Positions 26,808-31,671 are shown, counted from the first letter of the stretch. The stretch is DNA of 64,000 nt from Escherichia coli (GCF_048403405.1 NZ_CP183129.1); one strand, 5' to 3'. Program-made: numbers and translations. The notes: generated from the letters alone by a model not told the origin.

Positions 26808-27017
26808 ATGGGCAAATTAGGTGAAAACGTTCCGCTTCTTATCGATAAAGCCGTAGATTTCATGGCATCGAGCCAGGCGTTCCGGGAGTATCTGAAAAAA
26901 CTACCTCCCCGTAACGCGATTCCGTCCGGAATACCTGATGAAAGCGTGCCGTTATATCTACAACGTCTGGAGTATTATCGTCGGCTTTATCGGCCGAAGC
27001 AGGTAGAGGGGCAGTAA
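26808..27017 (+). CDS. yibT: Small protein YibT
   Basis: 69 aa; K-12 yibT position between yibL and mtlR. Confidence 0.8.
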
Positions 27018-27038
27018 GCAGGCGTTGCTTACTTTTGG
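27014..27038 (+). terminator. Hairpin plus T-run at yibT stop
   Basis: Stem GTAAGCA/TGCTTAC, loop GGCGT, then TTTTGG; overlaps the convergent mtlR stop. Confidence 0.45.
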
Positions 27039-27616
27039 AAGGCTTTTTTTAAGCTGATTTTGGAAATCAGCTCTGTCAGTGAAAGGACCATTGTTGATCG
27101 CACAGCCTGTTGGTAACGCTGAATTTGCATTGCATACAAACTGGAGTCTGCAGGTTCAAACTGTGGCGGCGGTGGTAACGCCGCCACGCAATGCAGTTCA
27201 CCAAAGGGTCCAAGGATTTCGTCGTCGGTAAACGCGTACTCGTTGCCGTCGTGATTTAGCTCTTCACGCAATGCCATCAGCAGTTCCGCATCTTCGTATT
27301 CCTGGCGGTTAATGACACCCAACCCGTAAATGAGTTTTAAACGCACAGAAAGATCGCCCAGCGGACCGTCGCCGTCGAGTAACGGTTCTACAGCATACTT
27401 CACCGCGTAATCGTCTTTGCGGAATACCTGAAGCACCAGAAGATTTACCGCCTCGGTCAAAAGCTCGACGGCGGTGATCAGAAAGCTTCGCACGGTTTTG
27501 CCAGCATTCAGACGCTCAAGCACACGGTTTTCAAAGGCCTGGGTTTGTTCCATTGTTGCCTGCATATCTGACAATCTGTTATTCGGGCGCAGGGTATCCT
27601 GCGCCTGGTCCACCAT
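27029..27616 (-). CDS. mtlR: Mannitol operon repressor
   Basis: 195 aa; last gene of mtlADR. Confidence 0.9.
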   Translation of the reverse strand: MVDQAQDTLRPNNRLSDMQATMEQTQAFENRVLERLNAGKTVRSFLITAVELLTEAVNLLVLQVFRKDDYAVKYAVEPLLDGDGPLGDLSVRLKLIYGLGVINRQEYEDAELLMALREELNHDGNEYAFTDDEILGPFGELHCVAALPPPPQFEPADSSLYAMQIQRYQQAVRSTMVLSLTELISKISLKKAFQK

Positions 27617-28764
27617 TATTGCATTGCTTTATAAGCGGTTACTGCCTCGGATACAACCTCGCTGTTGGCATCAAGACCGGAAATCTGTGCCAGCGCGGCT
27701 TGTGGGCCTTTGTCGGCAATCAGCGCTGCCAGTTCCTGAGCCTGCGGATCATCTTCACTGCGGAAGTGCATTGCAGCGGCAATACCTTCAATCAGGTTTT
27801 TATGTGGCAGACCATATTCCAGCGTTCCGAGCAGTGGCTTGATCAGACGGTCGCCAGCACTCAGTTTACGCAGCGGCTGACGGCCTACGCGCTCTACATC
27901 ATCTTTCAGATACGGGTTCTCGAAACGACCGAGGATTTTCTGGATGTACGCCGCATGTTTGTCCGCGTCAAAGCCGTAGCGCTTGATCAGTACCGCACCG
28001 CTTTCTTCCATCGCACCTTTTACCACCGCGCGGATTTTCTCGTCGAGAATCGCATCACGAATGGTCTGATGACCGGCCAGTTTTCCGAGGTACGCGGTTA
28101 TAGCATGACCCGTGTTCAGGGTGAAGAGTTTACGTTCGACAAATGCCATTAGGTTGTCGGTTAACTCCATGCCTGGGATGTTCGGCAGCGCGCCTTTGAA
28201 CTGCGTTTTATCAACAATCCATTCGCTGAATGTTTCTACCGTCACTTCCAGCGGATCGTTGGTTGCAGAAGCCGAAGGCGGCACGATGCGGTCAACGGCG
28301 GAATCGACAAAGCCAACGTGTTCTTCTACCCACGCTTTGGCATCTTCCGGCAGGGCGTTCATCACATGGCCTTTCAGCTGCGTGGTGCCGCGTACCATGT
28401 TTTCACAAGCGATGATGTTCAGCGGGGATTCATTACCTTGTTCTTTACGTTTCACCAGCCCTTTGGCGATAGCCGGAGCAATACGTTCCAGCACAACCGG
28501 GCCAACGGCGGTAGTGACTAAATCGACCTGAGCAATCAGATCAACGACATCATCACCAATGCTGCTGACAGCATTGACGCCGGAAACGGTATCTACCTGC
28601 TCGGTTTCACCGACCACATGAACCTGATAGCTATGACGGGCATTCAGGGCATCAAGTACCACCTGATTGACATCGGCAAACGTCAGTTGGATACCCGCGT
28701 CTGCCAGCAGTTTACCGATAAAGCCACGACCGATATTACCTGCGCCAAAATGTAATGCTTTCAT
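27616..28764 (-). CDS. mtlD: Mannitol-1-phosphate 5-dehydrogenase
   Basis: Start trimmed to [17 protein letters not shown] (382 aa); the 443-aa ORF-track entry reads through the intergenic hairpins. Confidence 0.95.
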
Positions 28765-28803
28765 AGTATTAACCTTCATCAATGTTTTTACCCGAGAGGG
28801 CTG

Positions 28804-28848
28804 GGGTGAGGCTTTTCCCTCACCCAAACCCTCTCCGTGAGGAGAGGG
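28804..28848. repeat. Two intercistronic stem-loops between mtlA and mtlD
   Basis: GGGTGAGG-CTTTTC-CCTCACCC at 28804-28825 and CCCTCTCC-GTGA-GGAGAGGG at 28829-28848; 8-bp perfect stems. Confidence 0.8.
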
Positions 28849-28858
28849 TAGGATTGGA

Positions 28859-30772
28859 TTACTTACGACCTGCCAGCAGTTCCAGCACTTCATCCACGCT
28901 GGTGGTGTGTGCCAGACGTTCGATGACGGATTCATCATCCAGTGCATTGGTCAGGCTGGTGATAACCTGAATGTGCTCGTTGTTACGGGCAGCAATACCA
29001 ATCACCAGACGGGCAATGTCATCTTCTTCTTCACCGAAGCGCACGCCTTCCGGGTACTGGCAGAACACCACGCCCGTTTTGAGTACGCGATCTTTCGCTT
29101 CAACCGTACCGTGTGGCACCGCGATAGACTCCCCCAGATAAGTCGGGGTCAGTTTTTCACGATCCAGCATCGCCTGAACATATTCCGGCTCAACGTAACC
29201 GCCTTTCACCAGCTGCTCGCCAGCAAAACGAATCGCTTCTTCTTTGGTGGCCGCTTTGCGACCGAGGAAGATGTTCTCCGCGCCTAGCTTGAACAGGTTA
29301 GCACTGGAATCGTCAAAGCTGTCTTTCAGACTGTCTTTCACTTTCACTTCGTTTTCAGTATGGCGCTGAGCAGCAACCAGACGTTCGGTCAGGCTGGTGT
29401 ACAGGCCGCTGTCGAGGAAGTTGGTCAGCGAAATATGCTGTGCCTGCGGAACCTGGCGCATAGCGCGTTCGGTCAGGTCACGGTGAGTGATGACCAGGTC
29501 CACATCTGGCGGCAGGTTGTTGATCGCGCTGTTAGTAACAGAAATCTGCGACAGACCTGCATCCTGAATTTTCTTACGCAGCACGCCTGCGCCCATTGCA
29601 CTGGAACCCATACCGGCATCACAGGCAACGATGATTTTACGTACGTGGCTCAGGTCGTTAGTCACATCGCCCGCAGACAGCGGAGACGCACCTTTAGACT
29701 CAGCTTTCATGTCCTGCATACGACGAGTTGCTGCTTCAATATCATCTTCTTCTTTCACTTTGCTGGTTTTCAGCAAAATAGCAGAGACAACGAAGGAGAC
29801 AGCCATCGCCGCACACACACCCGCGATGTTAGCGAAATAAGCACCTTTTGGTGTCATCGCCAGTACCGCAAGGATAGAACCCGGAGATGCCGGAGAAACC
29901 AGACCACCGCCCAGGATAGTCAGCGTGAACACGCCAGTCATACCACCGAGGATAACGGCCAGAATCAGACGCGGATTCATCAGCACATACGGGAAGTAGA
30001 TTTCGTGGATACCGCCCAGGAAGTGGATGATTGCCGCACCGCCCGCAGACTGTTTAGCGCTACCACGACCAAAGAACATGTACGCCAGCAGCACGCCCAT
30101 ACCCGGACCTGGGTTAGCTTCAATCAGGAAGAAGATGGATTTACCCAGTTCATGGGACTGCTGAATACCCAGCGGCGAGAAGATACCGTGGTTAATGGCG
30201 TTGTTGAGGAACAGGATTTTCGCCGGTTCAACAAAGATAGACGCCAGCGGCAGCATGTCATGGACAACCATGAAGTTAACGCCCGCAGCCAGCATTTTGG
30301 ACAGGGCTTCAACAATCGGGCCAATGCCGAGGAATGCCAGAATAGCGAGGATCATCCCGATGATGCCTGCGGAGAAGTTATTCACCAGCATCTCAAAACC
30401 GGATTTGATCTTACCGTCTACCCAGCGGTCGAAGTGCTTAATGCACCAGCCGCCCAGCGGACCTGCAATCATAGAGCCGAGGAACATCGGCATGTCTGCG
30501 CCGACGATAACGCCCATGGTGGTAATGGCACCGACTACGCCGCCACGTTCGCCGCCTACCAGCTTACCACCGGTATAACCGATCAGCAGCGGCAGGAGAT
30601 AAGTGATCATCGGCCCGACCAGCTTCGCCAGCGTTTCGTTCGGTAACCACCCTGTTGGAATAAATAACGCGGTGATGATACCCCACGCGATAAACGCGCC
30701 GATATTTGGCATCACCATGTTGCTGAGGAAACGACCAAAGCTTTGCACTTTGATCTTAATATCGGATGACAT
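28859..30772 (-). CDS. mtlA: PTS mannitol-specific EIICBA
   Basis: 637 aa; polytopic IIC domain followed by IIB and IIA domains. Confidence 0.95.
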
Positions 30773-30915
30773 AAAAACACCCCTTCTTATGTTTGCTGTC
30801 GCGCAGGCTGGAAGCCCGAGGTTTTTTGTTAATGTGGCGGCAGAGGTAGCCGGACCTTGTAGATACTGCGAAATCTGGCACTGAATCGGTTAACTGTCCA
30901 GTCGACGGCCTTTTG

Positions 30916-30931
30916 TGTGATATCAGTCACA
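30916..30931. promoter_or_regulatory. CRP site, perfect half-sites
   Basis: TGTGA-TATCAG-TCACA, 144 bp upstream of the mtlA start. Confidence 0.75.
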
Positions 30932-30959
30932 TAAATATAGGGGGTAGAGAGGTAATTGA

Positions 30960-30975
30960 CGTGATGCTCATCACA
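30960..30975. promoter_or_regulatory. CRP-like site, one mismatch
   Basis: cGTGA-TGCTCA-TCACA. Confidence 0.5.
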
Positions 30976-31032
30976 AAACTCTTGTGTAAAAAAGCAACAA
31001 GGCGGCGATTTTCGCTAAAAATGGCATTTAAA

Positions 31033-31048
31033 TGTGAGTGATGTCACA
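31033..31048. promoter_or_regulatory. CRP site, perfect half-sites
   Basis: TGTGA-GTGATG-TCACA. Confidence 0.75.
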
Positions 31049-31076
31049 TTTTTGTTTTGATGGTTTGTTGAATTTT

Positions 31077-31092
31077 TGTGATCTGAATCACA
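31077..31092. promoter_or_regulatory. CRP site, perfect half-sites
   Basis: TGTGA-TCTGAA-TCACA. Confidence 0.75.
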
Positions 31093-31308
31093 AGATATTT
31101 TCTTACGGCGTTCACCTGATGTGATCTACAGCATGTTATGCCTTCGTCATGAAATCGTTATGTAACTAAGCAACTCATCACCTCTTAAAATTATTCTTTG
31201 GTGTTATGGCGAGAATCGCGAACCCGGATTATTGTCAAAATATCAGCCTGACTCCCTTCTGGCTGCCAGCCAAAAAACAACACCGATAAACGTGAATCCG
31301 AGGCAGAT

Positions 31309-31671
31309 ATGTTTCTAAACTATTTCGCGTTGGGAGTGCTGATCTTCGTCTTTCTGGTGATTTTTTATGGAATCATCGCGATACATGACATCCCTTATCT
31401 GATTGCCAAAAAGCGCAACCATCCCCATGCCGACGCTATTCATACGGCGGGCTGGGTGAGCCTGTTTACTCTACATGTTATCTGGCCGTTCCTGTGGATC
31501 TGGGCGACGCTCTATCAACCGGAGCGCGGCTGGGGCATGCAGTCACATGTTGCGTCGCAAGAGAAAGCGACTGACCCGGAAATCGCCGCACTTTCTGACC
31601 GAATTTCCCGGCTGGAGCATCAACTCGCCGCCGAGAAAAAGACTGACTATTCCACGTTCCCGGAGATCTAA
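31309..31671 (+). CDS. yibI: Small inner-membrane protein (DUF3302-like)
   Basis: 120 aa, two TM helices; paralogue of the yiaW product in this window. Confidence 0.85.

Follow-up and report, generated by a model that had tools for sequence, protein, structure and literature searches.

The twin hairpins that separate mtlA from mtlD in the 64-kb stretch of Escherichia coli DNA analysed here (the window) constitute, on the evidence of their block architecture, the E. coli orthologous copy of the BoxC repeat, built of 1.5 units in inverted orientation. BoxC is a dispersed enterobacterial repeat, for which the names PIT element and, as a motif for intrastrand triplexes, TMECO were subsequently introduced (Bachellier et al.; Hoyne & Maher; Holder et al. 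2015, PMC4666352). The repeat family itself is already known, and it is the conservation of this particular copy that may be the new part. As to its role, we would give a probability somewhat below one half (about 0.45) to the reading that it is a selected folded structure in the mtlADR mRNA, which would act as a barrier to decay, as an insulator of mtlD translation initiation, or as both.

The mtlA-mtlD spacer measures 94 nt from stop to start on the minus strand (28765-28858), as judged from the ORF map and from annotation; mtlA and mtlD are annotated in the RefSeq entry of TUM14771, which is 100% identical to the window over 1.1 kb. In mRNA sense the spacer reads UCCAAUCCUA-CCCUCUCC-UCAC-GGAGAGGG-UUU-GGGUGAGGG-AAAAG-CCUCACCC-CAG-CCCUCUC-GGG-UAAAAACAUUGAUGAAGGUUAAUACU, so that the element consists, in order, of Y1, R1, UUU, R2, a loop, Y2, CAG, Y3 and GGG (Table 1). 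An earlier note, made from the window alone, had described two perfect hairpins of 8 bp each without assigning them to BoxC; the coordinates it gave for the spacer are exact and both stems are confirmed, the first being extended to 9 bp by a flanking A-U pair. The accompanying statement that the hairpins fill most of the gap does not hold for the two hairpins alone (46 of 94 nt), and becomes correct once a third arm, Y3, is counted (56 nt). This arm had been overlooked, and with it an 18-nt imperfect palindrome (H2+H3) is obtained.

Table 1. Features of the mtlA-mtlD spacer in the window
Feature	Position	Strand	Basis or remark
mtlA stop TAA	28859..28861	minus	sequence, ORFs, RefSeq annotation of TUM14771
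Y1, CCCUCUCC: 5' arm of hairpin 1 (H1); also junction of the 135-bp deletion relative to K-12-type strains	28841..28848	minus	kept in 65 of 66 orthologous spacers
R1, GGAGAGGG: 3' arm of H1, or alternatively 5' arm of the long-hairpin extension H3	28829..28836	minus	
R2, GGGUGAGGG: 5' side of hairpin 2 (H2); could supply the third strand of an intrastrand DNA triplex (purine motif) on Y1:R1	28817..28825	minus	
Y2, CCUCACCC: 3' arm of H2	28804..28811	minus	compensatory changes with R2 in other genera
Y3, CCCUCUC: third arm; with R1 extends H2 into a long hairpin of 17-19 bp (H3)	28794..28800	minus	minimum-energy fold; 18-nt palindrome; 91.6% of cells paired over 66 species (best 80 of at least 580 loci)
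Conserved GGG after Y3	28791..28793	minus	pairs with CCC of Y1 in the minimum-energy fold
mtlD 5' leader: A-rich UAAAAACAUUGAU and Shine-Dalgarno GAAGG (28777-28773)	28765..28790	minus	fixed distance from the element
mtlD start ATG	28762..28764	minus	sequence and annotation
H1, perfect stem: CCCUCUCC, loop UCAC, GGAGAGGG	28848-28841, 28836-28829	minus	
H2, perfect stem: GGGUGAGG, 6-nt loop, CCUCACCC	28825-28818, 28811-28804	minus	

The spacer is also crossed by an ORF of 443 aa (27616-28947), which, as already supposed, is an over-extended form of mtlD, the true product having 382 aa. The mtlD frame is open for 61 codons 5' of the true ATG, so that it spans the spacer and reaches the 3' part of mtlA (28765-28947, minus), and for this reason ORF callers over-extend mtlD to 443 aa in strains with the short spacer, a point of relevance for annotation. 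An in-frame AUG, not preceded by a Shine-Dalgarno sequence, lies five codons 5' of the annotated mtlD start. A coding role of the spacer itself was ruled out, since its length varies by non-multiples of three and conservation tracks the repeat blocks and not the codons.

The TMECO consensus has been given as CCCTCNCCC N3-6 GGGNGAGGG N3 GGGNGAGGG (PMC4666352). In its strict form it has no match in the 64-kb window, because two arms of the mtl copy, Y1 and R1, are 8 and not 9 nt long (CCCTCTCC-T and C-GGAGAGGG); the R-R module departs from the consensus by one mismatch on the sense strand and by three on the other strand, in an inverted arrangement. The strict consensus is present in 24 of the 66 orthologous copies found in other genera (among the best 80 of at least 580 loci), and the E. 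coli copy can therefore be regarded as a slightly decayed homolog. The BoxC copies that were checked elsewhere share the same block architecture. Members of the family often occur as inverted pairs in which an A-type (TTA) unit faces a B-type (CCG/CTG) one. The canonical inverted pairs of MG1655 have the layout Y-R-R-spacer-Y-Y-R, one of them (TMECO 7+8) sharing TTA-like and CAG linkers, and the mtl layout Y-R-R-loop-Y-Y-(GGG), with TTT and CTG linkers, parallels pairs 1+2 and 7+8, except that the second unit is deprived of its last arm. The GGG after Y3 is probably the remnant of this lost arm of the inverted half.

The likeness to BoxC thus comprises the block order, the near-identical blocks CCCTCTCC, GGAGAGGG and GGGTGAGGG, the 3-nt linker, the intergenic location, a layout resembling the inverted pairing of an A-like (TTT) and a B-like (CTG) unit, a perfect purine-motif triad code and the rearrangements that adjoin the element. 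On the other hand, the mtl copy differs from the canonical ones by its 8-nt arms and TTT linker, by a second unit in which only GGG is left of the last purine arm, and by a central spacer shrunk to 5-6 nt. The element is the sole copy within the 64-kb window, 8-mers at 338 and 8163 having been rejected as isolated chance matches. By BLAST the 65-nt element is single-copy in E. coli genomes, as it has diverged from the canonical BoxC sequence, members of which are found at a median of 2-6 places per E. coli genome; it is therefore the block architecture that shows family membership. The mtl copy is not among the 23 TMECOs tabulated for MG1655, and neither mtlA nor mtlD is mentioned in the text of that paper or in the supplements searched (PMC4666352). 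An Rfam 15 scan of 27000-31500 at E <= 10 gave chance-level matches only (E = 3.7-7.7; 19 bits compared with a gathering score of 96).

To assess conservation, contigs from one genome per species were scanned with MtlD, and the comparison took in the best 80 of at least 580 loci. The element occurs in 66 of these 80 mtlA-mtlD spacers, and its orientation never differs; the genera include Escherichia, Citrobacter, Salmonella, Klebsiella, Enterobacter, Kosakonia, Lelliottia and Leclercia as well as Cedecea, Buttiauxella, Siccibacter, Franconibacter and Mangrovibacter. Y3 is separated from the mtlD ATG by 28-30 nt in 62 of the 64 species measured in this set (best 80 of at least 580 loci). Rates were obtained as parsimony counts on a simple neighbour-joining tree built from mtlD. 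R1 is the most conserved block, with a mean pairwise identity of 0.955 (95.5%) and 1.1 changes per site; the values are 0.914 and 2.0 for R2, 0.908 and 1.9 for Y3, and 0.859 and 4.0 for Y2, and the GGGU after Y3 shows 1.25 changes per site. In mtlD, four-fold degenerate sites have an identity of 0.554 with 13.1 changes per site, and codon positions 1+2 have 0.938 with 1.06, while the H2 loop (0.464; 10.4) and the sequence upstream of Y1 (0.347; 21.5) were scored in the same way. Since they undergo 1-4 changes per site as against 13 at the four-fold sites, the blocks change about as slowly as non-synonymous positions. We infer that the sampled Enterobacteriaceae inherited the element from a common ancestor that had it between mtlA and mtlD, and that purifying selection has kept it about 29 nt 5' of the mtlD start with its orientation unchanged.

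Other repeats, namely REP, ERIC and further hairpins, accumulate in the part of the spacer that lies between the mtlA stop and BoxC. Single REP-like hairpins lie 5' of BoxC in Citrobacter and Salmonella, and one or two BIMEs in E. coli (L001/L002/L005). What we take to be an ERIC/IRU-like element (…GTGAATCCCCAGGAGC…GACTGGGGTGAGCG…) is present in the spacers of Citrobacter werkmanii, C. youngae and Enterobacteriaceae RIT691 (L016, L018 and L055, respectively), again 5' of the BoxC element. In Cedecea neteri (L066) the same position is occupied by a second full BoxC.

Within E. coli, the spacer exists in at least three sizes: 94 nt (window, O157:H7), 229 nt (K-12) and 318 nt. In the longer spacers the mtlA stop is followed by an extra hairpin (CCCACCCTCTCC-ACAT-GGAGAAGGTGGG), then by a BIME and then by the invariant BoxC element. 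The spacer of the window is the product expected of a 135-bp deletion between two direct copies of CCCTCTCC (alignment A1). The short form is considered to be derived because E. albertii has the long one, and we infer that a 135-bp deletion from a spacer of the K-12/E. albertii type removed the extra hairpin together with the BIME. Of 5426 complete genomes searched, 862 have the short junction and 3022 the K-12-type junction, and in about 80% of E. coli genomes the spacer contains a BIME immediately 5' of the BoxC element. The 65-nt element itself is intact in 5404 of the 5426 complete genomes (99.6%), whereas the three canonical K-12 BoxC pairs are intact in 2715, 3266 and 2721 of them. Compared with canonical copies, which are present in 50-60% of E. 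coli genomes, the mtl copy is therefore unusually stable for its family; it differs from them also in being orthologous across the family of bacteria, at a fixed distance from a start codon.

Approximately 13 kb from the mtl element, the window offers an example of presence/absence polymorphism in the BoxC family. The lldD-trmL spacer (15683-15729, minus) is 47 nt long in the window and 197 nt long in MG1655, where it holds a canonical inverted pair (TMECO 17+18, PMC4666352) that is missing from the window and intact in 2715 of the 5426 genomes.

The spacer RNA is predicted to fold with -40.2 kcal/mol, as compared with -25.2 +/- 3.3 kcal/mol in 200 shuffled sequences, none of which reached this value (z = -4.59); folding of the minus-strand transcript, which had been named as a check, hence gives a stable predicted structure (z = -4.6). 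As DNA, the spacer folds with z = -4.6 for the sense strand and z = -5.0 for the other strand. R1 can pair upstream with Y1, giving H1 and thereby the twin hairpins, or downstream with Y3, giving H3, which stacks on H2 to form one long imperfect hairpin. The minimum-energy RNA fold is the long hairpin and the centroid is the twin hairpins, the predicted energies being almost equal. Across species, the two exclusive folds have mean energies of -41.4 and -41.0 kcal/mol, with H3 favoured in 26 of 65.

Both structures are retained in the comparison. H1, for which Y1 was aligned by pairing and not by MAFFT, is present in 65 of the 66 copies (best 80 of at least 580 loci), with 8-14 bp and loops of 3-11 nt, and in Mangrovibacter it contains a compensatory U-A pair. 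For H2+H3, 91.6% of cells are paired on the 66-species alignment (best 80 of at least 580 loci), as opposed to only 36-58% in slid controls; seven pairs are altered on both sides (20 cells), and none of 500 shuffles reaches the observed values. Examples of compensation are GGGUGAAAGG/CCUUUCACCC at one locus (L057) and GGGAAAGGG/CUUUCCC in Franconibacter. Covariation of the linkers closes the internal loop as CCA/UGG in Siccibacter and as UUC/GAA in Klebsiella oxytoca. On the sense strand, departures from Watson-Crick pairing in H2/H3 amount to 17 G.U versus 4 A.C parsimony events, within H2 alone to 13 G.U versus 0 A.C cells, and in H1 to 20 G.U versus 3 A.C. For H1 and H3, base composition alone would produce part of this skew, given that R1 is invariant and that C is abundant in the Y arms. 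Taken together, the skew points to selection on the folded sense strand, and it leaves RNA and non-template DNA undistinguished. Covariation in palindromes can alternatively arise by template switching in DNA, without selection on RNA.

One variant is explained by neither the hairpin nor the triplex model. In several Citrobacter species and in Salmonella enterica subsp. arizonae and diarizonae (L013, L015-L018, L020, L021 and L028; A3 columns 40/70), R2 reads GGUUGAGGG in place of GGGUGAGGG, and Y2 has no compensating change, which results in a U.C mismatch in hairpin 2 and in a non-canonical triad.

Spacers of Pantoea, Mixta and related Pantoea-type loci (L074, L076, L077, L079, L080 and L082-L090) do not contain BoxC. 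In the Erwiniaceae, unrelated GC-rich tandem hairpins with the same two-way folding are found at the same place. The Pantoea-type spacers carry a tandem duplicate of a GC-rich palindrome, GGGGCGGGCAAGCCCGUCCC and GGGGCGGAUUUGCCCGCCC, just 5' of position 1501, for which both twin hairpins and a single long hairpin are predicted (-43 kcal/mol, z about -4.5) and which is followed by a weak U-rich stretch, UUUCGUCAUUU. Mixta and a Cedecea-like isolate have a single hairpin at this place. By its position and its unrelated sequence, the Pantoea-type structure is to be seen as analogous. The idea of a Pantoea attenuator was rejected because the last arm is paired in both folds, so that the alternative fold cannot serve as antiterminator.

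A role of the mtl element in operon expression is plausible, given that it lies on the transcribed strand, has a very stable predicted structure and is under strong purifying selection at this position in 66 species (best 80 of at least 580 loci). The active form would be the sense strand, folded while single-stranded and most probably present as mtlADR RNA, in which it would adopt the form of two hairpins (H1 and H2) or of one long hairpin (H2 and H3). The structure could provide a nuclease-resistant boundary on the 3' side of mtlA, and it could insulate the unstructured, A-rich initiation region of mtlD from the variable spacer upstream; it would be neither an intrinsic terminator nor a promoter. 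The analogous hairpins at the same position in Erwiniaceae support a reading at the level of RNA structure. The intercistronic REP/BIME of malE-malF, reportedly described as a stabiliser by Newbury and colleagues in 1987, is the proposed model for how the mtl element may work. As in that case, and as in the protective 3' structures of Dar & Sorek, a stable repeat-derived hairpin is situated downstream of a transporter gene in a sugar-uptake operon. The mtl element differs from these structures in belonging to another repeat family, in having no recorded differential decay in the one dataset that covers mtlADR, and in the conservation of its primary sequence and not of its pairing alone.

Published transcript data bear on this reading to some extent. 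The earlier note had proposed an element of mRNA processing or stability. The stable predicted mRNA fold and the conserved position agree with that proposal, whereas mtlADR is not among the differentially decaying operons of Dar & Sorek (2018): in their K-12 data from LB, mtlA-mtlD-mtlR was analysed and does not appear in the differential-decay S3 table (PMC5927463). This absence speaks, though only weakly, against the element altering the mtlA:mtlD mRNA ratio strongly in K-12 in LB. As for mapped 3' ends, also named as a check, the Term-seq tables of Adams 2021 contain none in the spacer and only an antisense site in mtlD, which is again weak evidence, because the operon is poorly induced in the media used. 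SMRT-Cappable-seq and a Salmonella RNase E map have no entries for mtlA or mtlD, and a literature search on the mtlA-mtlD spacer returned nothing specific.

The primary sequence of the element, with a conservation of about 95%, exceeds the need of a simple protective hairpin, and this points to sequence-specific recognition or to a structure that depends on exact purine blocks, such as a triplex. Such near-invariance keeps alive a role at the level of DNA or of protein recognition. It is conceivable, with less confidence than for a folded mRNA structure, that the copy merely shares a generic function of BoxC in DNA, with nothing specific to the mtl transcript. Candidates would be intrastrand triplexes of the purine motif or hairpins, formed transiently by the non-template (sense) strand while the DNA is transcribed or replicated, or the binding of a putative sequence-specific protein. 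The family is dispersed, and its near-invariant purine blocks are common to many genera (PMC4666352). In the window, R2 is a perfect third strand for Y1:R1, with 8 of 8 canonical purine-motif triads (G·G:C, A·A:T, T·A:T), and the 66 orthologs (best 80 of at least 580 loci) score a mean of 8.4 of 9, as against 3.9-5.3 in shifted registers. Canonical TMECO oligonucleotides form triplexes in vitro according to CD and NMR (PMC4666352). Furthermore, rearrangements cluster on the upstream side of the element, with insertions of BIME, ERIC and REP and the 135-bp deletion, which fits the genome instability reported near TMECO sites.

Several observations argue against such a generic function. In vivo DMS footprinting detected no triplex, according to PMC4666352. 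A sense-strand triplex could do without Y2 and Y3, and yet both arms are conserved and show covariation with R2 and the linker. BoxC elements at other loci come and go freely, also among E. coli strains, and a role common to the whole family therefore cannot explain the fixed position, orientation and distance of the mtl copy. A triple helix in RNA was set aside: triplexes of the purine-motif type do not form in RNA, according to PMC4666352, and the topology of the chain disfavours the pyrimidine-motif type.

A selected RNA structure might also be one whose two exclusive helices, H1 (Y1:R1) and H3 (R1:Y3), are both functional, although we regard this as rather improbable. In one version, H2+H3 would be a substrate of the RNase III type, and the upstream product of cleavage would refold into a protective 3' H1; in another, switching between the folds would tune the expression of mtlD-mtlR. 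The maintenance of both helices in 65 of 66 species (best 80 of at least 580 loci) speaks for it, as do the linker covariation that closes the internal loop in Siccibacter (CCA/TGG) and in Klebsiella oxytoca (TTC/GAA), the length of the long helix (17-22 bp) and a putative RNase E consensus-like motif (AC↓AUU) in the conserved A-rich leader. The near-equal energies of the two folds, with H3 the more stable in some species, could be added; however, they are automatic, since Y1 and Y3 repeat each other. No ligand, protein or signal is known for such a switch, the datasets searched list neither gene, mtlA or mtlD, with a site of RNase III or RNase E, and the compensation seen in the palindrome can come from template switching in replication.

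A partial intrinsic terminator or attenuator that sets the mtlA:mtlD ratio, which had been put forward for the hairpins, is very improbable. The hairpins are GC-rich and lie within an operon, and the analogous hairpins of Erwiniaceae are followed by the weak U-rich UUUCGUCAUUU. In the window and in all 66 copies from Enterobacteriaceae (best 80 of at least 580 loci), however, the hairpins are followed by GGGUAAAAAC, and since this is not a U-tract the element is not an intrinsic terminator. A terminator scan of 28765-28858 found no site on either strand, and a scan of the spacer for internal promoters was likewise negative. Moreover, mtlA-mtlD-mtlR was retained among the operons without an internal terminator, internal start site or Rho site (Dar & Sorek 2018, PMC5927463). 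PIT/BoxC elements that were tested had neither promoter nor terminator activity and no effect on RNA polymerase, as summarised in PMC4666352.

The remaining possibility is a relationship with REP, for which a comparison with the consensus had been suggested and came out negative. REP consensus units are of the GCCGGATGCGGCG...CGCCTTATCCGGCCTAC type. REP-like units were found only in the inserts of K-12-type and FDAARGOS_1262-type strains, and the spacer of the window is free of REP. The BIME of K-12 shares the spacer with the mtl BoxC, and yet it is an unrelated sequence family (GCCGGATGCGGCG-type) that is variable and absent from the window, whereas the BoxC part is invariant. That the hairpins are a REP/BIME element, as the two or more REP units in spacers of K-12-type strains might suggest, or a chance palindrome can practically be dismissed, because those units lie wholly within a 135-bp or 224-bp insert missing from the window, and because the folding z-scores and the conservation in 66 species (best 80 of at least 580 loci) exclude chance. 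The strain differences in the adjacent BIME, with spacers of 94, 229 or 318 nt, could affect the expression of mtlD and mtlR. A shortage of MtlD would be expected to be toxic, given the accumulation of mannitol-1-phosphate described in PMC11784389.

BoxC/PIT/TMECO sequences have been known for about 30 years, with no function shown; in vivo tests for promoter, terminator and polymerase-blocking activity were negative. The only association reported for BoxC is with local genome instability, and the mtl copy behaves in the opposite manner. It could be imagined, though we hold this to be a tentative idea, that the mtl copy is an anciently domesticated BoxC, kept throughout the Enterobacteriaceae as a two-state RNA (H1+H2 versus H2+H3) that controls processing, stability or translation of mtlD-mtlR relative to mtlA. 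If so, the domesticated copy would be the first BoxC/PIT element with a host function, and it would open to experiment the question, posed since the 1990s, of what BoxC sequences are capable of. Being fixed in position and orientation across the Enterobacteriaceae and changing as slowly as protein-coding positions, the mtl copy is a natural test case, and a small series of deletions and substitutions in the well-understood, inducible mtl operon could show whether BoxC has a selectable role.

In passing, it can be mentioned that an ORF of 1742 aa (19646-24874, minus), flanked by lldP and by the ORFs that follow mtlR, codes for a trimeric autotransporter adhesin. Its Pfam domains comprise an ESPR signal peptide, YadA head repeats, 14 stretches of YadA stalk and a YadA anchor, and it is unrelated to the mtl element.
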